From contig CAVRCJ010000011.1 in the NCBI GenBank assembly GCA_963719515.1, positions 96,001-160,000 of the forward strand: a stretch of 64,000 nucleotides of DNA, written 5' to 3'. A program made the position numbers and the translations under genes. Below the pieces are notes generated by a model. The model was not told where the DNA came from. It ran no database searches and was given only the letters and a program-made list of their open reading frames with translations. Below are positions 8,215 through 36,712 of the stretch, piece after piece. Positions within the stretch are counted from its first letter, which is position 1. Each line of letters starts with the position of its first letter. The DNA is from an uncultured cyanobacterium (GTDB lineage Bacteria; Cyanobacteriota; Cyanobacteriia; CAKZMO01).

Positions 8215-10368
8215 ATGGCGACGTTTTTACTTGAGGTTGGGACGGAAGAACTTCCCGCTGAGTTCCTAGACACGGCGTTTTCCCAGTGGCGATCGCAGAT
8301 TCCAGCCAGCCTCGCCGAGGCGTTTTTGACCCCCGAGGCGATTCACATCTACGGCACCCCGAGGCGGCTGGTGCTGCTGCTGGAAGGCCTGCCCGAGCAG
8401 CAGCCCGACCGCACAGAAGAGGTCAAAGGTCCCCCGGCCCAGGCGGCCTTTAAGAACGGCAAGCCCACCAAGGCGGCAGAGGGGTTTGCCCGCTCTCGGG
8501 GGGCAACGGTGGAGGACTTAGAGGTGCGTGACACGGGCAAAGGCTCGTTTGTATTCGTCATTCAGCGGATTGCGGGCCGCAGCGCGGCGGCGGTGCTCGC
8601 CGAGCAAATTCCCGACTGGGTGCTGGGGCTTGAAGGCAAGCGGTTTATGCGCTGGGGGGACGGCGACCTGCGCTTTCCGCGCCCCATCCGCTGGCTCATG
8701 GCCCTGCTGGACGACCAGCTCTTGCCCATCACCCTAGAAAACGGCTCCGAGGTCATCCACAGCGATCGCCTGTCCTACGGCCACCGGGTGCTCTCCCCCG
8801 GCGCGATTGAGATTGCCCAGGCCGAGGGCTACTTGAGCGCCATGCGGGCCGCCCGCATTGAAGTGGACCCCGAGCGACGGCGAGAGGCGATCGCCGAGCA
8901 GACCCAGCGGGCCGCCAAGTCTGTGGGGGGAGTAGCCCGCATGTCGCCGGAGCTGCTGCAGGAGGTGGTGAATCTGGTGGAAACCCCCACCGCCGTTGTG
9001 GGCACCTTTGCCCCCGAATTCTTGGAGGTTCCCTCAGAGGTGAGCATTACGGAGATGGAGAGCCACCAGCGCTACTTCCCGGTGCTGGCGTCTGAGTCCT
9101 CGGGTACCCTGCTGCCCTACTTCATCACTATTTCCAACGGCGACCCCGACAAGGCCAAAATCATCGCGGCGGGCAACGAGCGCGTGATTCGCGCCCGGCT
9201 CTCCGACGGCAAGTTCTTTTTTGACCTCGATCGCAAGCAGACCTTGGAGGCCTACTTACCCCAGCTGGAAACGGTCACCTTCCAGCAGGACATTGGCTCA
9301 GTGCGCCAAAAAGCCGCGCGTATTGAGGCGATCGCGGAGCTGATTGGGGGCCAGCTGGGCATCGCCGAACCGGAGAAAACCCAGGTGCAGCGGGGGGCGC
9401 TGCTGTGCAAAGCGGACCTCGTGACCCAAATGGTGGGGGAGTTTCCGGAGCTGCAGGGGGTAATGGGGCAAAAGTACGCCCTGGCCAGCGGCGAGGACGA
9501 GGCCGTGGCCACCGCCATCATGGAGCATTACCTGCCTCGGGGCGCGGACGACGCCATGCCCCAAACCCTAGTGGGCCAGGTGGTGGGTCTGGCCGACCGC
9601 CTCGATACCCTGGTGAGCATCTTTAGCCTGGGCCGGGTGCCCTCGGGCTCCTCCGACCCCTTTGCTCTGCGGCGCGCCGCCAACGCCGTCGTCAGCATTA
9701 TCTGGCAGGGAAACCTGGCGCTCAACCTGCGGCAGCTGATGGCAGAGGCCATCACCAGCTTCACCCAGCACAACGCGATCAAAGCGGGCGATGCCGCCTC
9801 CCTGCAGGGACAGCTCGAAGCCTTCTTTCAGCAGCGGCTGCAGACCCTGCTGGCCGAGATGGGCATCGACTACGACCTGATCAACGCCGTGCTGGGAGAA
9901 GGCGATCCCGAGTACGCCGCCCGCGCCCTCAGCGACCTGCTCGACGGACGCGATCGCGCCCGGTTCCTGCAGCAGATTCGCCAAGATGGCATTCTGGAGA
10001 GCATCTACGAAACGGTGAACCGCGCCTCCCGGCTGGCGGCCCAGTCGGACTTTGACACCGCCCCGCTGGACCCCGCCCAGGAAATCGACAAGGCCCTGTT
10101 TCAGCAGGATTCGGAGCAGGCTTTCTACGACGCCCTGGTGACCCTAATGCCAAAGACTCAGCAGGCCCAGGCCAGCCGAGACTACGGGGCGCTGGTGGCA
10201 GCCTTGGGGGAAATTGCCCCCGTGGTGAGCCAGTTTTTCGACGGGCCGGACAGCGTTTTGGTGATGGCCGACGACCCGGCGGTGCGGCGCAACCGGCTCA
10301 CCCTGCTGGGGCTGCTGCGCAACCATGCGCGGGTGCTGGCGGATTTTGGGGCGATCGTCAAGCAGTGA
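8215..10368 (+). CDS. glyS: Glycine--tRNA ligase beta subunit
   Basis: [39 protein letters not shown]-terminal NRL.LL. Confidence 0.97.
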
Positions 10369-10669
10369 GCGTTGGCCGTTGTGTAGCAAATCTTACGGCT
10401 GGCGGCAAATTCTGACGTCGGTATTACAGTGCTAAAAGTCATAGGGTTTCCCGTTTGGTTTAATACTGGGCAATTCCCTAAGCGCTTAAATGCCTTGCTT
10501 ATCGGTGCCGCCGATTACTGGTTCAGAATTTGTGCAAGTAATAACTTATGTAAAACTAAAGCTTTATTTATGTCTTTAGACAGTCTTAAAAGCTTACTAT
10601 GCTTCGCTATATTTTAGACATGGAAGAAGTCGCGACTGTTCATCAAAATACCTTACTTTGGAGACAAGC

Positions 10670-10942
10670 ATGAACATTTTAGCCTGGGCTATATTGGGTT
10701 TAATTGCTGGTGCAATTGCTAAAGCTATCTACCCCGGTCATCAGAGTGGTGGCATTTTAGGCACATTAATTTTGGGCGTGATTGGAGCCTTTTTGGGCGG
10801 TACTCTTTTCACGCTCTTGACTACCGGCTCATTAGCCTTAACGGCGTCTAGCCTAAGTATCGGCGGCGTTTTTGTTGCTGTTTTAGGCGCGATCATCGCC
10901 CTGTTCATCTACTATGCAGCAACTAAGCGCACAACGGTGTAG
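10670..10942 (+). CDS. GlsB/YeaQ/YmgE family stress-response membrane protein
   Basis: MNILAWAILGLIAGAIAKAIYPG signature; RBS GGAG. Confidence 0.9.
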   Translation: MNILAWAILGLIAGAIAKAIYPGHQSGGILGTLILGVIGAFLGGTLFTLLTTGSLALTASSLSIGGVFVAVLGAIIALFIYYAATKRTTV

Positions 10943-10965
10943 CTAGAGATTGCCAATAGCTTAGC

Positions 10966-11007
10966 AAAGCCTTGAAGCCGCTTATTGGAGCGGCTTCAAG
11001 GCTTTTT
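10966..11007 (+). terminator. Intrinsic terminator (possibly bidirectional)
   Basis: AAAGCCTTGAAGCCGCT-loop-AGCGGCTTCAAGGCTTTTT perfect stem. Confidence 0.85.
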
Positions 11008-11050
11008 CACGTCACAATAGTTGTACCTTTAATTCTAGTAAGTTATCCGA

Positions 11051-12406
11051 ATGAAGCTTAACGTGAGCAATCGAGAACGGTGTAAAGCTCTAAAGCAAGC
11101 GCTGAGCACTTTTGTGCTAGATGCCGAAGGAGACTTGGCGATCGCTTTAGAGACATACAGTTCCCGACGTTTGAGGCAGTGGTCAGACGCAAAGCTTCAA
11201 GGCATTGATTGTTCTGGTTTAGCAATTGATATGTTTATCACCGAAGGTCAAGTTAATGGCCAATCGGTGCTAGATATTTTTGCAGCGAACCAGCCCAGAC
11301 TATCTGAGACAGATCAAGCGCTTGTTAAGGGCTGGAAGGACACTTTCAACGGTCTGTTTGTCGTTCTTCAGGTCACCCCGCAGGGCTATGAGCTCATGAA
11401 CTGGCTGACTGAAAAGCAGTATTGGGTGCAGTCTAGCGGCCTACAATCAGAGGAACGGCTGGCTCGATTGTCTCCTGGTGAGATCGTTGCCGTTCGGCTG
11501 TCGCCCGTTCCAGAAGCTGATTGGATATTTTCAGGGCCTTTGCTGCTGTTAGGAAAGCTAGGAAAACCCAAGCTAGCTGTTGCTATTGGTAACTTTAAAA
11601 ACTGGTTCCCCAACTATCTTTATGGAGATGCCCCTGACCTTTTGGAGGAGGCCTGGAAATCGGTAAAGCACTACCACGATGAGTTTGTACAGTTCTTTGA
11701 AGCAGAGCGGGTTACGCTTTCAGGGTATGAGCTCAACAAAAAGCTGAACGCGTATCAAGAATTTGCTACTCAGCGCCAGCTAGAACGCACAGGGATAGAC
11801 AGCTCTAAGTCTTTGAAAGACCTGATGGACCAGGCTGGTGTGTCACAGGAAGAGGTTTCCGAATCGGTTGAATCCCTCGGGGCGGAGGGCCGCCAGGTGA
11901 AGCGCCTACTAGAGAGTTCAAAATCGGTGAAGATGGTGATGCCGCCTCTCAAGCTTCCAGATGACCTGCGCAAGGCGGAGGCGGTTACGGTGTTTGTCCA
12001 TCCGCGCTGGGGACAGATGATGTTGAAAGACTACGGGCAGATGACTCAGCTGCTTGAAGCCGCAGACGAGGCATCGCTAGCCAAGCTAGATCTGTTCGTC
12101 CATCGGTACCTCAAAAACGAGGCCGCGACTGCCTACGTTTGGCAATCCTTGGCTGAGGAGAATCCGGAGGCGCTAGAAGCGGCGCTCAGCCGGGTTCTTG
12201 ACCGCCCAGTTTCCCTTCAAGATGACCTAGAGAAGATTTTACTCGAGTTTGGAAAGTCCCTTGAACCGAAGCTTCCAGAGGTTGCCAGTGTCCCTGTTCA
12301 CCTGCACAACCTGTTTCAAGAGGCGCTGCAGGAGGTGAACGGTAGTTCATCGAAGAAAAAGGCAAAAGGCAAGCGGAAGCAAAAAGCTGGTTTTGCGGCT
12401 CTTTAG
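11051..12406 (+). CDS. Hypothetical protein (451 aa, Lys-rich tail)
   Basis: Long open frame with normal composition; KKKAKGKRKQKAGF C-terminus; family not recognised. Confidence 0.8.
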   Translation: MKLNVSNRERCKALKQALSTFVLDAEGDLAIALETYSSRRLRQWSDAKLQGIDCSGLAIDMFITEGQVNGQSVLDIFAANQPRLSETDQALVKGWKDTFNGLFVVLQVTPQGYELMNWLTEKQYWVQSSGLQSEERLARLSPGEIVAVRLSPVPEADWIFSGPLLLLGKLGKPKLAVAIGNFKNWFPNYLYGDAPDLLEEAWKSVKHYHDEFVQFFEAERVTLSGYELNKKLNAYQEFATQRQLERTGIDSSKSLKDLMDQAGVSQEEVSESVESLGAEGRQVKRLLESSKSVKMVMPPLKLPDDLRKAEAVTVFVHPRWGQMMLKDYGQMTQLLEAADEASLAKLDLFVHRYLKNEAATAYVWQSLAEENPEALEAALSRVLDRPVSLQDDLEKILLEFGKSLEPKLPEVASVPVHLHNLFQEALQEVNGSSSKKKAKGKRKQKAGFAAL

Positions 12407-12770
12407 CAAGGTTTAAGTCGCCCTTATTGACGGAGGTTGGGCTATCTCACTTTCGCCAAATTCGGCGATCGCGGCTTGATGACTGGCAGTACTCACGCAG
12501 CACGTTGGATCTTGCTGAAGCAGAGCTCTAAGCCCTTTTTTAGGGCAGGCCCCAGGCTCACCTTGACCCCTGGTGCATCGGGGTACTCCAGCCACATCGA
12601 TGAGTCGGGAGAGAGCGAGCTCCACCCATATTGCTCTAATTGGCTTTGGCCTTTGTCGTTGAGGGTGTAGATTCTCTGCGATGTCCTCAAAACCACCAGC
12701 GCCTCTAAGCCGTAGTAGTCCGCATTGCGCTGCGTGTTGACTACTGCGTTGCCTTCGCTGTCGGACGACT

Positions 12771-13039
12771 CGAAGCCTACCAACCCACCTATCTTGACTC
12801 CCGCCTCGATCGCGAAGCCGAAGCGCCAACGGCAGACTGCAGCCCAAACTCAGCAGGCGGCCAAATCGGTGGGAGGGGTGGCCCGCACGGCACCGGAGCT
12901 GCTGCAGGAGGTGGTCAACCTGACAGAAACCACCACCGCCGTTGTGGGCACCTTCGTCCCTGACGTTAAGCAGTGAGCGCTGCTCGTTGTGTAGAAAATC
13001 TTACGGCTGGTGGCAAATTCTGACGTCGGTATTACAGTG
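12771..13039 (+). pseudogene. Mosaic relic: WD40-gene 3' end fragment + internal glyS fragment + glyS 3' end/3' UTR
   Basis: 12771-12834 aligns to 19725-19791; ~12841-12963 aligns to glyS ~8895-9018; 12964-13039 matches 10356-10431 (6 mismatches in 76 nt). Confidence 0.85.
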
Positions 13040-13198
13040 TTAACAGATATAGCAAAGGTCCTGATGCATTAGGACCTTTGCGCGTCTGGTTGCCTAGGCG
13101 ATGTCTAGCTTTAAGCCGAAAGCGTTGTCTTAAGCAACCCGGCCAGCGCAACCAATCGCCCAGCGCCCCAAGCAAGCTGCCCAAACCACCACCCCGCG

Positions 13199-13865
13199 AT
13201 GTGCCCCCAGACGATTTTGATTCTGTCGGCAAATCCTAAAGGCACCCCGGCCCTGCGCCTCGACGAGGAGGTGCGGGAAATCAAGGCGGGCCTAGAGCGA
13301 TCGCCCCACCGCGATTTGTTTCGCATTGAGCAGGCGGAGGCGGTGACGCCGCGAGACGTGCAGCGGGCGATGCTGAAGCATGAGCCGCAGAATTGTACAT
13401 TTTTGCGGCCACGGCAAGGGGGAAGACGGCATCTTGATGGAGGGCGTCGGCGGTCAGCCGCAGCTGGTGAGCGAGCGGGCGCTGTCGAAGCTGTTTGAGC
13501 TGTTTGCCGACGAGATTGACTGCGTGCTGCTCAACGCCTGCTACTCGGCGGTGCAGGCGCGGGGCATCGCTCAGCATATTGGCTCGGTGGTGGGGATGAG
13601 CAAGGCCATCGGCGATCGCGCGGCAATTGAGTATGCGGTGAGCTTTTACGATGCGCTGGGGGGTGGGCGAGATTTTGAGTTTGCCCATCGGCTGGGGTGC
13701 AATGCGATCGAGCTGATGGGGATTGACGAGGCGCTGGTGCCGGTGTTGGTTCAGAAGGGTGATGGCCTCCTTTCGTCTTCTGCGGCTGATACCGCTGGCG
13801 AAAGGTTGGGCGAAGGCTGCTCAGTCCCCCAAAATTGGGGGACTTTGACATTGGAAGCCCTCTAA
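13199..13865 (+). pseudogene. CHAT (caspase-like) protease domain, frameshifted by one extra base at ~13391
   Basis: ILILSANPKGT..LRLDEEVREI...HEPQ / IVHFCGHG...VLLNACYS; His and Cys dyad retained; CAG-A-ATT frameshift. Confidence 0.85.
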
Positions 13866-13914
13866 ATCCCCCAATCGACGACCTTCGGTCACGCTCCGCG
13901 AAGGGAGACTTTGA
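13821..13914. repeat. Cyanobacterial palindromic repeat doublet (TCCCCCAA..GGG(G/A)GACTTTGA) between CHAT and TIR
   Basis: Two related units; the second contains an extra ~25-nt segment; supplies the in-frame TAA at 13863. Confidence 0.65.
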
Positions 13915-13928
13915 CGTAGCTGACCCGC

Positions 13929-15527
13929 TTGAGCGGCCAGACTGCCCATGTCTTCGTCAGCTACAAGCGCGGCGTGGAGCCAGATGAGCGGGTGGCCAAG
14001 GCGATTTACGAGGCGCTCTCGCCTCAGCATGAGGTGTTCATTGACCAGACGATGCCGGTGGGCACCCGGTGGATGGAGCGCATCGATGCGGAGATTCAGC
14101 GATCGCACTTTATGGTGGTGCTGCTGTCAGCGCATTCGGTGCAGAGCGAGATGGTGATCCTGGAGCTGGAGAAGGCGCAGCACAACGCGAGCCATGCGGG
14201 ACGACCTAAGCTGCTGCCGGTGCGGCTGGGGTATCGGGAGCCGTTTCAGTATCCGCTGAGCGAGTATTTGAACCCGATTAACTGGGCTTTTTGGCAAGAC
14301 GAGGGGGATACGGCGCGGCTGGTGCAGGAGCTGGAGGGGGCGATCGCGGGGCAGCCGCTCACCATTGAGACCCAGGCGGCGAAAGACGAGCTGGTGACGC
14401 CGGAGCCGGACGCGGAGCCTATTGAGGCCCCGCCGCCCCCCATCGCTCAGCCCCATCAAGCTAGAGCCCATCAAGCTAGGGCCCATCAAGCTAGGGGCCA
14501 TCAAGCCAAAGCCCCAGAAAAGCTGGAGCTGCCGGAAGGCACCATGACCGTGGAGTCGCAGTTTTACGTGGCGCGGCAGGCAGACCGCATTGCCCTAGAG
14601 ACCATTGGCGAACGGGGGGTGACGCTGACGATTAAAGGGGCGCGGCAGGTGGGCAAAAGCTCGCTGTTGATTCGGGTGATGGCGGCGGCGCGGCAGGCGG
14701 GAAAGCGGGTGGCGTTTCTGGATTTCCAGATGTTTGACAAGACCACGCTGCACAGCGCCGACGCGTTTTTCTATCAGTTTTGCCTGTGGCTGAGCGATGC
14801 GCTGGAGGTGGAGGACGAGGTGGACGCCTACTGGCAGCGCCCGGAGGGCAACCGCCAGCGCTGCACCCGCTATATGCGACGGCACATTTTGCCGAAGCTG
14901 ACCGGGTCGCTGGTGCTGGCCATGGATGAGGTGGAGAGCATTTTTGATACGCCGTTTCGCACGGATTTCTTTGGCATGCTGCGCAGCTGGCACAACCAGC
15001 GGGCCAGTAGCGACTCCTGGCGCAAGATCGACCTGGCGCTGGTGACCTCTACCGAACCGTATCAGCTGATTGACGACCTGAACCAGTCGCCCTTCAACGT
15101 GGGGGAGGTGCTGGATTTGGAGGATTTCTCTATGGCCCAGGTGCTGGAGCTAAACCAGCGCCACGGCGAGACGCTGACGCCCGCTCAGGCGCAGCAGCTG
15201 ATGGGGCTGGTGAACGGCCATCCGTATTTGGTGCGCAAGGCGCTGTATCTGGTAGCGCGGGGGCGGATGACGGCGGCAGAGCTGTTTGACCAGGCGGCGC
15301 AGGAGCGCGGCCCGTTTGGCGATCACCTACGCTATCACCTGTTTCGCGTTTACGATAAGCCGGAGCTGGTGGCGGCGCTGCTAAAAATCATTCGCCAGCG
15401 CAGCTGCCCGGATGAGCGGCTGTTTTTCCGGCTGCGGGGGGCGGGGCTGGTGCGGCGCGACGGCCAGGCTATTGCGCCTCGGTGTGAGCTGTATGGGATT
15501 TATTTTCAGGAGCATTTGCGTGGGTAA
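13929..15527 (+). CDS. TIR + AAA_35 (AAA-like) P-loop NTPase; probably the C-terminal part of a CHAT-TIR-AAA_35 gene
   Basis: VFVSYKR...FIDQ...VVLLS..S..SEMVILEL TIR; Walker A GARQVGKSS; Walker B LAMDE; SPFNVG; GHPYL; same frame as the CHAT C-half. Confidence 0.85.
   Translation: MSGQTAHVFVSYKRGVEPDERVAKAIYEALSPQHEVFIDQTMPVGTRWMERIDAEIQRSHFMVVLLSAHSVQSEMVILELEKAQHNASHAGRPKLLPVRLGYREPFQYPLSEYLNPINWAFWQDEGDTARLVQELEGAIAGQPLTIETQAAKDELVTPEPDAEPIEAPPPPIAQPHQARAHQARAHQARGHQAKAPEKLELPEGTMTVESQFYVARQADRIALETIGERGVTLTIKGARQVGKSSLLIRVMAAARQAGKRVAFLDFQMFDKTTLHSADAFFYQFCLWLSDALEVEDEVDAYWQRPEGNRQRCTRYMRRHILPKLTGSLVLAMDEVESIFDTPFRTDFFGMLRSWHNQRASSDSWRKIDLALVTSTEPYQLIDDLNQSPFNVGEVLDLEDFSMAQVLELNQRHGETLTPAQAQQLMGLVNGHPYLVRKALYLVARGRMTAAELFDQAAQERGPFGDHLRYHLFRVYDKPELVAALLKIIRQRSCPDERLFFRLRGAGLVRRDGQAIAPRCELYGIYFQEHLRG
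14452..14511 (+). repeat. 15-bp in-frame tandem repeat (AHQAR-like, 4 copies) in the TIR-AAA linker
   Basis: CCCATCAAGCTAG(A/G)G units. Confidence 0.85.
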
Positions 15528-18500
15528 GCCAAACCGCAATATCTACACCCCTGGAGGCACGGTGCAGGCAGGGCAGGGCATCTATTTAGAGCGGCAGGCC
15601 GACGCGCAGCTGCTGCAGCTTTGCCAGGAGGGGGTGTTTGCCTATGTGCTGACTTCGCGGCAGATGGGCAAGTCGAGCCTGATGGTGCATACGGCGCGGC
15701 GGCTGGCGACCGAAGGGGTGGTGACCCTAATTGTGGACCTGACGGATGTGGGGGTGCAGGATGTGACGGCGGATGCCTGGTATCGGGGCTTTTTGCTGGA
15801 GATTGAGGCGAAGCTGGAGTCGCAGGAGCGGTTTTTGGATACCGATGTGTATGCCTGGTGGGAGGCGCACCACTATTTGACGGTGTCGCAAAAGCTGTCG
15901 CGGTTTTTCCGCCATGTGCTGCTGGAGGAGGTGGAGGGGCCGGTGGTGGTGTTTGTGGATGAGATTGACACGACCTTGAGCCTGGATTTTACGGACGACT
16001 TTTTTATTACGATTCGCTCGTTTTATACGGCGAGGGCGCAGGATGCGGCGTTTCAGCGGCTGTCGTTTGTGCTGATTGGGGTAGCGACGCCGGGGGATTT
16101 GATTGTGGACTCGAAGCGAACGCCGTTTAATATTGGCCAGCGGGTGGAGCTGACGGATTTTGGCTATGGGGAGGCGCTGCCGCTGGCGGCGGGGCTAGCG
16201 CTGGGGGGGACGGCTCTGGCTGGAGACGGGCCTGGAGGGACAAGCGCAGCGGGGCGGGAGCGGGAGGTTTTTGAGCGGGTGCTGCACTGGACGGGGGGGC
16301 ATCCGTATTTGACGCAGCGGTTGTGCATTGAGCTGGCGCGGTATGGAGGTGGGGGTGAGCCGACTGGTCTTACCCCCCTTAGTCCCCCCTTAGAAGGTGT
16401 GATAGAGCCTACACAAGCTGGTTTTACCCCCTCTAACTCCCCCTTAGAAGGTGTGATAGAGCCTACACAAGCTGGTTTTACCCCCTCTAACTCCCCCTTG
16501 CTAAGGGGGAGAACTGGAGGCTTCCGCGCAGCGCGTCCGCAGGATGCAGGGGAGTTAGAGGGGGTGAACCCGAACGCTGAACTCTCGGCCAAAACCGTTG
16601 ACCAAGTTGTCAGCCGCACCTTCTTTGGTGAGAAGAGCGAGCAGGACAACAATCTGCAGTTTGTGCGGGATATGCTGACTACTCGATCGCCTAACGTGCT
16701 GGAGGGGCTGGCGATTTACCGGGCGGTTTGGCGGGGGCGGCGGCCCGTGGTGGATGAGGAGCAGTCGATTGTTAAGTCGCATTTGAAGCTGTCGGGGGGG
16801 GTGAAGCGGCAGGGGCAGCGGCTGGTGGTGCGCAATGAGATTTACCGGCGGGTGTTTGATGGGCGGTGGGTGCGGGAGCATTGGCCGGAGGGGGTGTGGG
16901 AGCGGCTGAGGCCGGCGATGCCGTTGATTGCGGGGCTGACGGTGGTGGCGCTGGGGATGAGCGGGCTGGCGGCCTATGCAGTGGGGCAGCGGAACCGGGC
17001 AGAGCAGCAGACGGCACTTTTAGAAGAGGCACTACTGCGGGAAGAAGAGCAGCGGGAGTTTGCCTTGAATAAGGCAGAAGAGGCCGAGGCAAATGCGAAA
17101 CAAGCCAGGCAGAACGAAGCAGAGGCGACGCGGCAATCAACGCGGGCTGAGAAAAATTTGAAAGACGCCCAACTGGCTCAGCAGCAGGCGGAAGCGGCGA
17201 AGCTGGCGGAGCAGGGGCAGCGGCAAGAGGCTGAAACACAAACGGCTATTGCGCAAGAACAAACCACAATTGCGCAGGAGCAAACCGTTTTGGCAGAGCA
17301 GCGGCTTGAGGAAGCAGATTCTGCAACGCTCTTGGCAAAGCAACGGTTGAGTGAAGCCGATGCGGCGAAGCTGCAGGCTGAACAAGAAAGCCGCATTTCG
17401 CTGGCGCGGCAGCTTGCGGCACAATCAGAATACTCGCGACGTCAGCGACTTGATCTGTTCCCTCGAAGCATCTTGCTGGCAGTCGAATCGATGAAGCGGC
17501 TGATGGACTCATCCACATCCACCGCAGACACCCACCAAGCGCTCCATAGCCTAAAAACCTTGCCCCCCAAAGCATCCCGCATTGCCCATGAGGGGGCTGT
17601 CTATGACGTGCGGTTTAGCCCCGACGGGCGCTACCTGGCAACCGGCAGTAGGGACAATACGGCGCGGGTGTGGGACGTTGCGGCAAACCAAGAGGTGGCC
17701 CGCATTGCCCATGAGGGGTGGGTCGTTGACGTGCGGTTTAGCCCCGACGGGCGCTACCTGGCAACCGGCAGTGAAGACGGTACGGCGCGGGTGTGGGACG
17801 TTGTGGCAAACCAAGAGGTGGCCCGCATTGCCCATGAGGGGTCGGTCGTTGACGTGCGCTTTAGCCCCGACGGGCGCTACCTGGCAACCGGCAGTGAAGA
17901 CGGTACGGCGCGGGTGTGGGACGTTACGGCAAACCAAGAGGTGGCCCGCATTGCCCATGAGGGGTGGGTCGTTGACGTGCGGTTTAGCCCCGACGGGCGC
18001 TACCTGGCAACCGGCAGTTTGGACAATACGGCGCGGGTGTGGGACGTTGCGGCAAACCAAGAGGTGGCCCGCATTGCCCATGAGGGGTCGGTCTATGACG
18101 TGCGGTTTAGCCCCGACGGGCGCTACCTGGCAACCGGCAGTGAAGACGGTACGGCGCGGGTGTGGGACGTTGTGGCAAACCAAGAGGTGGCCCGCATTGC
18201 CCATGAGGGGTGGGTCGTTGACGTGCGCTTTAGCCCCGACGGGCGCTACCTGGCAACCGGCAGTGAAGACGGTACGGCGCGGGTGTGGGACGTTGCGGCA
18301 AACCAAGAGGTGGCCCGCATTGCCGAGGGGTCTGTCGTTGACGTGCGGTTTAGCCCCGACGGGCGCTACCTGGCAACCGGCAGTAGGGACAATACGGCGC
18401 GGGTGTGGGACGTTGCGGCAAACCAAGAGGTGGCCCGCATTGCCCATGAGGGGTGGGTCGTTGACGTGCGGTTTAGCCCCGACGGGCGCTACCTGGCAAC

Positions 18501-19800
18501 CGGCAGTTTGGACAATACGGCGCGGGTGTGGGACGTTGCGGCAAACCAAGAGGTGGCCCGCATTGCCCATGAGGGGTCGGTCGTTGACGTGCGCTTTAGT
18601 CCCGACGGGCGCTACCTGGCAACCGGCAGTAGGGACAGCACCGCCCGGGTGTGGGACATTGCGGCAAACCCAGAAGTCGCCCGCATTGCCCATGAGGGGT
18701 ATGTCGAAGACGTGCGCTTTAGCCCTGACGGGCGCTACCTGGCAACCGGCAGTAGGGACAATACGGCGCGGGTGTGGGACGTTGCGGCAAACCAAGAGGT
18801 GGCCCGCATTGCCCATGAGGGGTGGGTCGTTGACGTGCGGTTTAGCCCCGACGGGCGCTACCTGGCAACCGGCAGTTTGGACAATACGGCGCGGGTGTGG
18901 GACGTTGCGGCAAACCAAGAGGTGGCCCGCATTGCCCATGAGGGGTCGGTCTATGACGTGCGGTTTAGCCCCGACGGGCGCTACCTGGCAACCGGCAGTA
19001 GTGACAATACGGCGCGGGTGTGGGACATCGCGGCAAACCAAGAGGTGGCCCGCATTGCCCATGAGGGGTGGGTCGTTGACGTGCGGTTTAGCCCCGACGG
19101 GCGCTACCTGGCAACCGGCAGTAGTGACAATACGGCGCGGGTGTGGGACATCGCGGCAAACCAAGAAGTCGCCCGCATTGCCCATGAGGGGTATGTCCTT
19201 GACGTGCGGTTTAGCCCCGACGGGCGCTACCTGGCAACCGGCAGTTTGGACAATACGGCGCGGGGGTGGGACGTTGCGGCAAACCAAGAGGTGGCCCGCA
19301 TTGCCCATGAGGGGTCGGTCTATGACGTGCGCTTTAGCCCTGACGGGCGCTACCTGGCAACCGGCAGTGAGGACAACACGGCGCGGGTGTGGGACGTTGC
19401 GGCAAACCAAGAGGTGGCCCGCATTGCCCATGAGGGGAATGTCCGTGACGTGCGCTTTAGCCCCGACGGGCGCTACCTGGCAACCGGCAGTTGGGACAGC
19501 ACGGCGCGGGTGTGGGACGTTGCGGCAAACCAAGAGGTGGCCCGCATTCCGCATGATGAGAGCGTAGGAAGCGTGCAGTTTCACCCCACAAAACCCTACC
19601 TGCTCACCCGCAGCGGCAACGTCGCCGAAGTCTGGATGCTCGACCCCAACGACCTGATGGCCGAAGCCTGCCGCCGCCTCACTCGCAACCTCACCCTTGA
19701 CGAATGGCGACAGTACCTCGGCGACGAACCCTACGAGGCCACCTGCCCCGACCTCCCCCGCCTCGATCGCGAAACTGAAGCCCCAACCGCAAGTCGCTGA
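15520..19800 (+). CDS. AAA_35 NTPase - TM helix - coiled coil - WD40 repeat protein
   Basis: GTG at 15520 after CAGGAG, overlapping the upstream stop; YTPGGTV, TSRQMGKSS, VFVDEID, TPFNIG, GGHPYLTQ; TM LIAGLTVVALGMSGLAAYAV; A/E/Q-rich coil; 16+1 WD40 repeats; ACRRLTRNLT..EW..Y tail. Confidence 0.92.
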   Translation: MGKPNRNIYTPGGTVQAGQGIYLERQADAQLLQLCQEGVFAYVLTSRQMGKSSLMVHTARRLATEGVVTLIVDLTDVGVQDVTADAWYRGFLLEIEAKLESQERFLDTDVYAWWEAHHYLTVSQKLSRFFRHVLLEEVEGPVVVFVDEIDTTLSLDFTDDFFITIRSFYTARAQDAAFQRLSFVLIGVATPGDLIVDSKRTPFNIGQRVELTDFGYGEALPLAAGLALGGTALAGDGPGGTSAAGREREVFERVLHWTGGHPYLTQRLCIELARYGGGGEPTGLTPLSPPLEGVIEPTQAGFTPSNSPLEGVIEPTQAGFTPSNSPLLRGRTGGFRAARPQDAGELEGVNPNAELSAKTVDQVVSRTFFGEKSEQDNNLQFVRDMLTTRSPNVLEGLAIYRAVWRGRRPVVDEEQSIVKSHLKLSGGVKRQGQRLVVRNEIYRRVFDGRWVREHWPEGVWERLRPAMPLIAGLTVVALGMSGLAAYAVGQRNRAEQQTALLEEALLREEEQREFALNKAEEAEANAKQARQNEAEATRQSTRAEKNLKDAQLAQQQAEAAKLAEQGQRQEAETQTAIAQEQTTIAQEQTVLAEQRLEEADSATLLAKQRLSEADAAKLQAEQESRISLARQLAAQSEYSRRQRLDLFPRSILLAVESMKRLMDSSTSTADTHQALHSLKTLPPKASRIAHEGAVYDVRFSPDGRYLATGSRDNTARVWDVAANQEVARIAHEGWVVDVRFSPDGRYLATGSEDGTARVWDVVANQEVARIAHEGSVVDVRFSPDGRYLATGSEDGTARVWDVTANQEVARIAHEGWVVDVRFSPDGRYLATGSLDNTARVWDVAANQEVARIAHEGSVYDVRFSPDGRYLATGSEDGTARVWDVVANQEVARIAHEGWVVDVRFSPDGRYLATGSEDGTARVWDVAANQEVARIAEGSVVDVRFSPDGRYLATGSRDNTARVWDVAANQEVARIAHEGWVVDVRFSPDGRYLATGSLDNTARVWDVAANQEVARIAHEGSVVDVRFSPDGRYLATGSRDSTARVWDIAANPEVARIAHEGYVEDVRFSPDGRYLATGSRDNTARVWDVAANQEVARIAHEGWVVDVRFSPDGRYLATGSLDNTARVWDVAANQEVARIAHEGSVYDVRFSPDGRYLATGSSDNTARVWDIAANQEVARIAHEGWVVDVRFSPDGRYLATGSSDNTARVWDIAANQEVARIAHEGYVLDVRFSPDGRYLATGSLDNTARGWDVAANQEVARIAHEGSVYDVRFSPDGRYLATGSEDNTARVWDVAANQEVARIAHEGNVRDVRFSPDGRYLATGSWDSTARVWDVAANQEVARIPHDESVGSVQFHPTKPYLLTRSGNVAEVWMLDPNDLMAEACRRLTRNLTLDEWRQYLGDEPYEATCPDLPRLDRETEAPTASR
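16371..16570. repeat. In-frame MITE-like palindromic insertion with a 54-bp tandem duplication inside the AAA_35 domain
   Basis: GGTTTTACCCCCTCTAACTCCCC / GGGGAGTTAGAGGGGGTGAACC inverted repeats; duplicated 18-aa PLEGVIEPTQAGFTPSNS. Confidence 0.8.
17581..19545 (+). repeat. Array of 16 near-identical 123-bp WD40 coding repeats (repeat 7 lacks one codon)
   Basis: IAHEGxVxDVRFSPDGRYLATGSxDxTARVWDVAANQEVAR x16, near-identical at DNA level. Confidence 0.97.
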
Positions 19801-35241: not shown

Positions 35242-36712
35242 TTAGCTAATTCGTGAAAGCCCCGCGCTGTATGCGCAGCATCAGCGTCGGGATGCAAGCG
35301 AGCGAGTCGCAGACGAGCAATTCTAGGGAGTAACACAACCCCTCCTAAATCTTGCTATAATTGGTACATGCTTACCTTGAACTACTCCTACCGAATCTAT
35401 CCAAGCCTTGAGCAGGAAGCCCGCATGGTGACGTGGCTTGAGACCTGTCGCGGCGTCTACAATTACGCCCTGAGGGAGCGCAAGGACTGGATAAAGTCGA
35501 GAAGCTGTCAGCTCAACGCTTGCTCGCTGCAATCGGAGTACATCATTCCAGCAGACGCGTCTTACCCCAGCTACTACGCTCAAAAGCGATCGCTGACCGC
35601 TGCCAAAAAGCAGTTGCCGCATCTCAAGGACGTGCAATCCCAGGTGCTTCAGGACGTGATAGGACGGGTGGAATCGGCGTTTGCTGCCAGGAAGGAGCGA
35701 GGTCACGGTTTCCCACGCTTTAAGAAGTTTGGGCAGTATCGCTCGTTTCTCTTTCCGCAGTTCAAGGAAAACCCGGTGACGGGTAGCCAAATCAAGCTGC
35801 CAAAGCTGGGAGAGATGCGCATTGTGCTGCATCGTCCCATCCCTGATGGGTTTGCTGTGAAGACGGTGCGCATCATCAAGAAGCATTCGGGGTGGTACGC
35901 TACCCTTTGCATTCAAGCCGATGTCAACGTGCCTGATGCTGTTCCTAGTGGGGCAAGTGTTGGGATTGATGTTGGGCTTGAGTATTTCCTGTCCACTTCC
36001 AACGGTTTGCAGGTCAAGCGACCTCGCTTTTCGGGTAAGCTGCACCGCAAGCTTGAATTGACGAGCGACCCCGCGCCGTCGCACGGCGCTAGGGAACGCG
36101 CGAGTTGCTGCAACGCAGGCTGAAGAACAAGCAAAAGGGGTCGAATAACCGCGCCAAGCTGATACGGAGGATTGGACGGGTGCATGAGCAGATAGCAGCC
36201 TGTCGCCTTGACTGGCAATTCAAGCTGGCCCATAAGCTCTGTGACTATGCCCAGATGATATTTGTGGAAGACATCGACTTCCGCATCATGGCAAAAGGGA
36301 TGCTGGGTAAGCACACCCTGGATGCTGGTCTGGGGCAGTTCGTCAACCAGGTGCTGCCATGGGTGTGCTTCAAGCGTGGTGTCTACTACGGCAAGGTTGA
36401 CCCCTACCGCACCTCTCAGGAATGCCCTGATTGTGGTGCTGCGGTCAAAAAGTCGCTGAGTGATAGGGTTCATCAGTGTCATAGCTGTGGGTCGGTCAAG
36501 CCGAGAGATATAGCTGCTGCCCAAGTCATCAACGCCCGTGGTCTTTCGGGTGTTCAAATTGTCTGTGGAGCCGAGGTAGCGGGGATGTGGGAAACCATAT
36601 CTAGCCAACTGGCTGTGTTCGCGCAGCGTGCGTGTAACGCGAAGCAGGAAACTCATCGGGCGACCGATGAAGCCCGCGCTCTATCCGTAGGATGAGCGTC
36701 GGGAGTATTCAC
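35242..36712 (+). mobile_element. IS200/IS605-family tnpB-only (IS1341-like) element
   Basis: TTAG at 35242-35245, left hairpin AAGCCCCGCGCT..AGCGTCGGGA, tnpB, right hairpin GAAGCCCGCGCT..AGCGTCGGGAG ending TCAC. Confidence 0.9.
35368..36695 (+). pseudogene. tnpB: RNA-guided endonuclease TnpB, frameshifted by a 47-nt insertion (36061-36107)
   Basis: YSYRIYP, GFPRFK, GIDVG, IFVED, CPDC/CHSC, RDIAAA; removing the insert restores KLELLQRRLK; TGnTATAAT 6 nt before the ATG (leaderless). Confidence 0.92.

Follow-up and report, generated by a model that had tools for sequence, protein, structure and literature searches.

A cyanobacterial pair of AAA_35 STAND ATPase genes as a candidate split receptor with a WD40 sensor and a TIR/CHAT output

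We analysed a 64,000-nucleotide (nt) stretch of DNA from an uncultured cyanobacterium (GenBank assembly GCA_963719515.1, contig CAVRCJ010000011.1, positions 96,001 to 160,000), hereafter the window, which carries two neighbouring genes, A and B, each encoding a P-loop ATPase domain of the AAA_35 family. Gene A has the architecture CHAT-TIR-AAA_35, and gene B, which runs from a GTG at 15520 to 19800, encodes an AAA_35 domain, a predicted transmembrane helix, a coiled coil and 16 near-identical WD40 repeats (Table 1). The original prediction, drawn from the letters of the DNA, had proposed that the two genes overlap by 8 nt and that both ATPases have Walker A and Walker B motifs, and this is what we find: A ends at 15527 and B begins at 15520, the TIR-ATPase frame and that of B are open, the Pfam AAA_35 scores are 366.9 bits for A and 100 bits for B, and the motifs read GARQVGKS and AMDEVE in A and TSRQMGKS and FVDEID in B. 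The TIR domain of A (TIR_2, 72.6 bits) carries its Glu at about 14163, and the TTG at 13929 from which the TIR-ATPase frame starts is without a clear ribosome-binding site at the usual spacing. The overlap is variable: one related contig carries 12 extra bases there, including an ATG, and at locus L012 about 170 nt separate A from B. A plasmid-borne pair from Abditibacteriota likewise overlaps by 8 nt. The TIR-ATPase linker holds a 15-nt tandem repeat at 14446-14510 (HQARA, four times), of which L012 and a contig from run X2 have one unit fewer.

Table 1. Features of the A and B genes, in window coordinates (aa, amino acids).
Feature	Position	Strand	Remarks
CHAT (short, caspase-like protease), gene A	13199..13772	+	ATG at 13199; one-base frameshift near 13388 disrupts the domain
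CHAT-TIR linker	13773..13928	+	in-frame stops at 13863-65 and 13917-19
TIR (aa 8-126, Glu79) and A-type AAA_35 STAND ATPase (aa 201-528)	13929..15527	+	open frame, TTG start
N-terminal B-type AAA_35 STAND ATPase, gene B	15520..16902	+	100 bits; GTG start
Insertion of about 80 aa in the helical domain of the B ATPase	16345..16584	+	dispersed repeat DNA, in frame
Single predicted transmembrane helix right after the B ATPase	16912..16986	+	aa 465-489
Q/E/A-rich helical stalk of about 200 aa	16987..17568	+	coiled coil judged by composition
16 near-identical 41-aa WD40 repeats	17569..19533	+	variable positions 9, 11, 27 and 29; one degenerate blade after
C-terminal tail of gene B	19666..19800	+	the only two cysteines 3' of the ATPase

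The CHAT part of gene A keeps its predicted His (about 13410) and Cys (about 13539), within HFCGHG and LNACY, in a disrupted frame. Its 3' piece reaches 22.1 bits in Pfam, below the cut-off of 24, and a profile from intact relatives matches the domain with 69.5 and 152.3 bits across two frames. Near 13388 the window has one surplus base relative to two orthologues of the same genus and to a single low-depth contig from a related strain. Within the linker, a segment of about 40 nt (13867-13908) matches two other sites in the source genome; at locus L016 the CHAT stays in frame through to the start of TIR, and none of the related-strain contigs listed spans this linker. CHAT is severed from TIR-AAA_35 because of the one-base frameshift and the two stops, and the CHAT-TIR-AAA fusion protein cannot be made from the sequence as assembled. 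The detached CHAT of the source genome is probably dead; TIR-A and B remain open frames. This genome contains four AAA_35 pairs, and 4/4 are frame-broken. Among conserved genes examined in the same way 2 of 61 are, a contrast that favours real decay over assembly noise and falls short of proof. The breaks in these pairs fall in CHAT or ATPase regions and not in propellers.

In gene B, both the membrane helix and the variable WD40 array that had been foreseen are present. The best 19-residue hydropathy of the helix is 1.86, and it forms one hydrophobic stretch. At the DNA level the WD40 repeats share 92% identity, differing mainly at four codons, where the non-synonymous divergence (pN) is 0.50 compared with 0.0125 at the other 29 codons; passages of Hu 2017 (PMC5587647) had already pointed out hotspots of variation in highly repetitive WD40 proteins of prokaryotes. 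A disulfide between the two cysteines of the tail is possible. The insertion in the ATPase domain has 44 blastn matches including itself and an internal 54-nt duplication, and keeps the reading frame.

To characterize the family, we used a subclade sample (the 80 best of 435 metagenomic loci, some of them near-duplicates) and a cyanobacterial sample (60 of about 100 strong AAA_35 matches listed, better assemblies favoured). AAA_35 was found in 30/41 genomes searched, often in several copies per genome, and in 0/14 control genomes. The expectation of a conserved two-gene sensor/effector pair was borne out, the survey of AAA_35 neighbourhoods showing the operon in other genomes, with co-diverging partners and natural fusions. 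B lies at most 300 nt downstream of A in 52 of the 66 subclade loci with enough downstream DNA, and in the cyanobacterial sample within 300 nt in 32/60, within 3 kb in 8 more and elsewhere in the fetched stretch in 4/60. Among the subclade A genes 72/80 have TIR, and 35/80 have CHAT and TIR in one frame. The catalytic residues, which the original prediction had identified in the window copy, are conserved across the subclade (TIR Glu 71/72, CHAT His 32/33, CHAT Cys 33/33), which makes it probable that intact copies encode active effector enzymes.

The AAA_35 ATPases split with full support into two clades that share about 20% identity: clade A, with a C-terminal ATPase and usually the upstream gene, and clade B, with an N-terminal ATPase and usually the downstream gene. 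The Walker A Lys is kept in 62/63 A and 46/46 B proteins, the Walker B Glu in 46/46 B but 38/63 A, and the residue ahead of a TPFN motif is Arg in 32/46 B and Gln instead in 53/63 A. Such an asymmetry of motifs would suit a heteromer. Distances among A and among their B partners are correlated (Mantel rho 0.77, 0/2000 permutations), and natural single-chain fusions occur as B-CHAT-TIR-A (L130:2-3568) and B-TIR-A (P0089); together these support functional coupling of A and B. Tandem B-B or B-B-B proteins also exist, P0039 and P0001 having three B domains with CHASE2 and tandem B-B, respectively. Six A genes (L107, L110, L114, L120, L127 and L135) have long N-termini ending in CHAT-TIR; that of L127 also has a kinase ahead of CHAT-TIR. 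The flanks retrieved for these six genes contain no B, and their partners may be encoded elsewhere.

The repertoire of associated domains is broad. B tails include WD40, TPR, GAF, CHASE2, FHA, CHAT and kinase, and 29/56 cyanobacterial A heads matched nothing, some heads carrying two domains. On the same AAA_35 core, GAF or CHASE2 sensors are joined to outputs such as kinases, cyclases and helix-turn-helix (HTH) domains. The closest plasmid relatives (61%) come from Abditibacteriota, with TIR-A followed by B-GAF, and from Chloroflexota, with B-WD40 followed by kinase-A-LuxR; atlas clusters extend the family to Acidobacteriota and Thermodesulfobacteriota.

Structure prediction places these ATPases in a known fold class. 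The AlphaFold2 model of the A ATPase domain (predicted local distance difference test score 94.7) best matched the archaeal ATPases PAB2304 (2qen) and SSO1545 (2fna) in the PDB, with a Z score of 20.7 over about 300 aligned residues and a root-mean-square deviation of about 4, followed by the cores of plant nucleotide-binding leucine-rich repeat receptors (NLRs) and CED-4. We take both archaeal proteins to be members of the MNS clade of STAND ATPases. The Gly and Pro of GxP are conserved in AAA_35 ATPases, and the fold as modelled is that of an MNS-type STAND, with P-loop, helical GxP and winged-helix parts. Sequence searches of the PDB with the A and B profiles gave matches at the level of Walker A only. 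A complex prediction for the A and B ATPase domains with ATP and Mg gave a score of 0.02 and a mark of 0.32, which we count neither for nor against an interaction.

The domain that follows the helix offers a guide to the topology of protein B. CHASE2 is an extracytoplasmic domain, and in 7/7 B proteins with CHASE2 a helix with a hydropathy of at least 1.67 separates it from the ATPase; none of the 11 B proteins with GAF, FHA or kinase has a helix above 1.38 ahead of that domain. The helix thus tracks extracytoplasmic partners, and therefore the propeller probably lies in the periplasm, for which this comparison argues strongly and as the original prediction had suggested. A helix is present in 24/25 WD40-type B proteins of the window's subclade, and 37/45 complete WD40-type B proteins have a cysteine pair within their last 100 aa.

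We next compared the pair with published systems. Passages of Pereira & Lupas 2022 (PMC9218822) place the WRAP propeller of Nostoc punctiforme Npun_R6612 in the C-terminal part of its STAND ATPase. A second STAND gene is coupled to that of Npun_R6612, and its protein has a TIR at the N-terminus, which a caspase domain may precede. The passages report innate immunity as the proposed role of this operon and disrupted copies as frequent, citing Dunin-Horkawicz, Kopec & Lupas 2014; the system is also summarised in part of Afanasieva 2019 (PMC6805158). The window pair resembles it closely: B carries a recently amplified WD40 array C-terminal to its STAND ATPase, it overlaps a TIR-STAND gene by 8 nt, gene A has an extra caspase-like CHAT (broken here, intact in 35/80 relatives), and disrupted copies are frequent (4/4 in the source genome), in agreement with the rapid turnover that those passages of PMC9218822 report for operons of the Npun_R6612 type. 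It differs in its blade consensus, in having 16 repeats rather than 14 and in being broken in the CHAT part and not in the propeller. Npun_R6612 itself (ACC84870.1) is not among the listed matches or cluster members. A Nostoc B-type homologue, P0051, is 60% identical to the window B ATPase, and Nostoc B-type proteins have WRAP-type blades, 2ymu as top PDB match and a lead-in strand shared with 2ymu, so that the window pair very likely belongs to the Npun_R6612/WRAP type of paired-STAND operon.

The statement in the original prediction that this architecture is not known as a characterised system therefore needs qualification. It stands in so far as we found no functional test of the pair in the literature, mostly screened at the level of search entries; it does not stand in so far as architecture and immunity hypothesis are already in print (PMC9218822, in the passages covered), the window locus being a partly decayed copy. 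Those passages make no mention of a membrane helix, an extracytoplasmic sensor or kinase, cyclase, HTH, CHASE2 or GAF variants, all of which the 2014 paper may have. More broadly, extracytoplasmic topology, A-B fusions and the breadth of swappable sensors and outputs do not appear in those portions of the texts that were covered.

We also compared the pair with other described systems. Kaur 2021 (PMC8195603) names, in the portions covered, an MNS 'Npun2340/2341' family that is left undefined there, and its MNS-Npun2340 supplement rows concern other architectures; the family definition is that of Leipe et al. 2004. The nSTAND2 two-gene system, for which parts of the same paper propose a hetero-multimer with a STAND module in both genes, shares with the window pair the two-gene operon and a STAND in each gene. 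In the parts covered, nSTAND2 has one inactive STAND fused to GT4 or HEPN, whereas the AAA_35 pair keeps the Walker A Lys in both proteins and has TIR/CHAT and transmembrane-WD40 as partners. We rejected identity with nSTAND2, both Walker A Lys being kept and neither GT4 nor HEPN occurring among the Pfam matches.

Fungal NWD/HET-E sensors have highly similar WD40 repeats in which a few positions are hypervariable, and the window repeats are similarly conserved except at a few hypervariable sites. With these receptors and with Avs and bNACHT proteins the pair also shares the logic of effector, STAND and repeat sensor. In contrast, those are single-chain cytoplasmic receptors, whereas the AAA_35 system distributes sensor and effector over two ATPase subunits, with the sensor probably beyond the membrane; Pfam assigns the window ATPases to AAA_35 and gives neither NACHT nor NB-ARC. 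No system-level PADLOC or NCBIfam match was obtained for the window pair, the matches being to partial domains only, and neither 50,697 phage records nor a scan of viral contigs contained a match to it. The main text of Lee et al. (PMC12803255, PMC13581612), in the portions covered, has no passage on an AAA_35-type pair.

With moderate confidence, we favour the explanation that A and B form a split STAND receptor in which B is the sensor and A the TIR/CHAT output, most likely serving a non-self response (immunity or cell death). Building on the observed anatomy, conserved pairing, conserved catalytic residues and fold, we infer that A and B bind, that there is a ligand and that the output is immune, in the following manner. 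Protein B would keep its ATPase in the cytoplasm and cross the membrane with one helix, its long stalk extending into the periplasm and carrying there a double propeller of recently amplified WD40 repeats, whose four variable positions per blade may form the binding face. Protein A would be the output subunit, with the same ATPase fold and a TIR, plus CHAT in intact copies. A ligand outside would cluster B, and clustered B would assemble a B/A ATPase hetero-oligomer inside, bringing TIR and CHAT together for NAD+ cleavage or signal production and for proteolysis. The original prediction likewise had a hetero-oligomer of the AAA_35 domains and a conflict or allorecognition role, both still hypothetical. 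The more specific proposal of a transmembrane NLR, in which the membrane-anchored STAND subunit reads periplasmic non-self through its hypervariable propeller and fires a cytoplasmic TIR and caspase-like partner, we put forward more tentatively. If true, this arrangement would combine Toll-like sensing on the outside with an NLR core, and the pair would form the immune arm of a widespread 'STAND two-component' signalling class with WD40, TPR, CHASE2 or GAF sensors and TIR, CHAT, kinase, cyclase or HTH outputs. Periplasmic sensing by a two-subunit ATPase would represent a different mode of bacterial pattern recognition, with phage tails in transit, predators, injected effectors or non-kin filaments as conceivable targets. 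Many intact natural copies make the pair directly testable, and its value lies in the family and not in the window copy.

Several observations weigh against the split immune receptor. The positive-inside bias at the helix is weak, with 20/38 in the expected direction, 9 ties and 9 reverse, and the association of membrane helix with cysteine tail is not significant (35/6 vs 2/2, p = 0.14). The synonymous divergence (pS) at the four variable WD40 codons is 0.43, about as high as their pN, and therefore positive selection is not formally shown. The Mantel correlation could arise from operon co-inheritance, which alone suffices, and for 16/60 cyanobacterial A genes the fetched stretch contains no B. 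In cyanobacteria the head of A frequently lacks an immune effector: the 56 heads include 15 with TIR, 7 with CHAT, 7 with a kinase, 5 with a cyclase and 3 with HTH. The window pair is flanked by glyS and a probable cation/proton antiporter gene, and defence genes are not enriched near pairs (8/137 open reading frames at 25 loci vs 3/35 window open reading frames), the defence-type neighbour matches being mostly generic domain hits.

The main rival explanation is a general transmembrane signalling module that resembles a two-component system, with the STAND pair replacing kinase and receiver. An environmental or envelope cue would be sensed by B and relayed by A to interchangeable outputs, and TIR and CHAT would be regulatory rather than lethal. 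The range of B sensors (CHASE2, GAF, PAS, FHA, TPR, kinase) and of A heads (Ser/Thr kinase, class III cyclase, HTH or LuxR) points this way, as do the missing defence-island enrichment, the source names of some homologues as WD40/ABC substrate-binding fusions, and the presence of the family in 30/41 genomes, often in multiple copies. We nevertheless regard this alternative as rather unlikely, given that 72/80 subclade A genes have TIR with the catalytic Glu kept, and that recently amplified hypervariable propellers and frequent breakage look more like an arms race than housekeeping sensing.

A change of compartment instead of function is harder to sustain. The hydrophobic helix might not be a true membrane span, the propeller then being a cytoplasmic NLR-type sensor of phage proteins, Avs-like and split over two genes; the helix is only moderately hydrophobic (1.86), its charge asymmetry is weak, and passages of Lee et al. 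(PMC12803255) show that characterised bacterial STANDs sense intracellular phage proteins. Against this, a helix in the same slot precedes CHASE2 in 7/7 proteins and cytoplasmic domains in none of 11, and 37/45 complete WD40-type B proteins have the cysteine pair in the last 100 aa, which leads us to consider a cytoplasmic propeller improbable. Least probable of all, in our estimate, is that assembly errors account for the lesions and that the source genome does make the full CHAT-TIR-AAA protein. One related-strain contig (depth 3.7) is without the extra base at 13388, and single-base indels are a typical error of assemblies; yet two in-frame stops and a repeat-bearing linker are beyond the reach of one indel, and the contrast of 4/4 broken pairs with 2/61 broken conserved genes speaks for genuine lesions.

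The other three pairs of the source genome are all frameshifted: TIR-A with B-TPR at C10:327852-334869 (-), a pair with a short B at C3:52755-55614 (-), and a pair followed by a GAF-like open reading frame at C3:99275-103336 (+). Loci at C11:225185-229821 and at C10 around 847000-849000 combine TIR or CHAT-TIR with a P-loop ATPase of another type.

In the window itself, a glyS remnant lies at 12845-13052, just 5' of the CHAT gene. In it an internal glyS fragment, 82% identical to 8899-9017, is fused to the 3' end of glyS and downstream DNA (89% identical to 10356-10444), and the whole looks like a deleted duplicate flanking the block 10369-12844. An open reading frame of 451 aa at 11051-12406, with G+C content below its surroundings, has no Pfam, NCBIfam or PADLOC match. 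A dispersed repeat of about 100 nt at 13045-13150 has about 40 blastn matches in the source genome and many in relatives of the genus. Further downstream, at 35368-36123, there is a piece of a TnpB/Cas12f-like open reading frame (PADLOC matches), probably from an IS200/605-type element.

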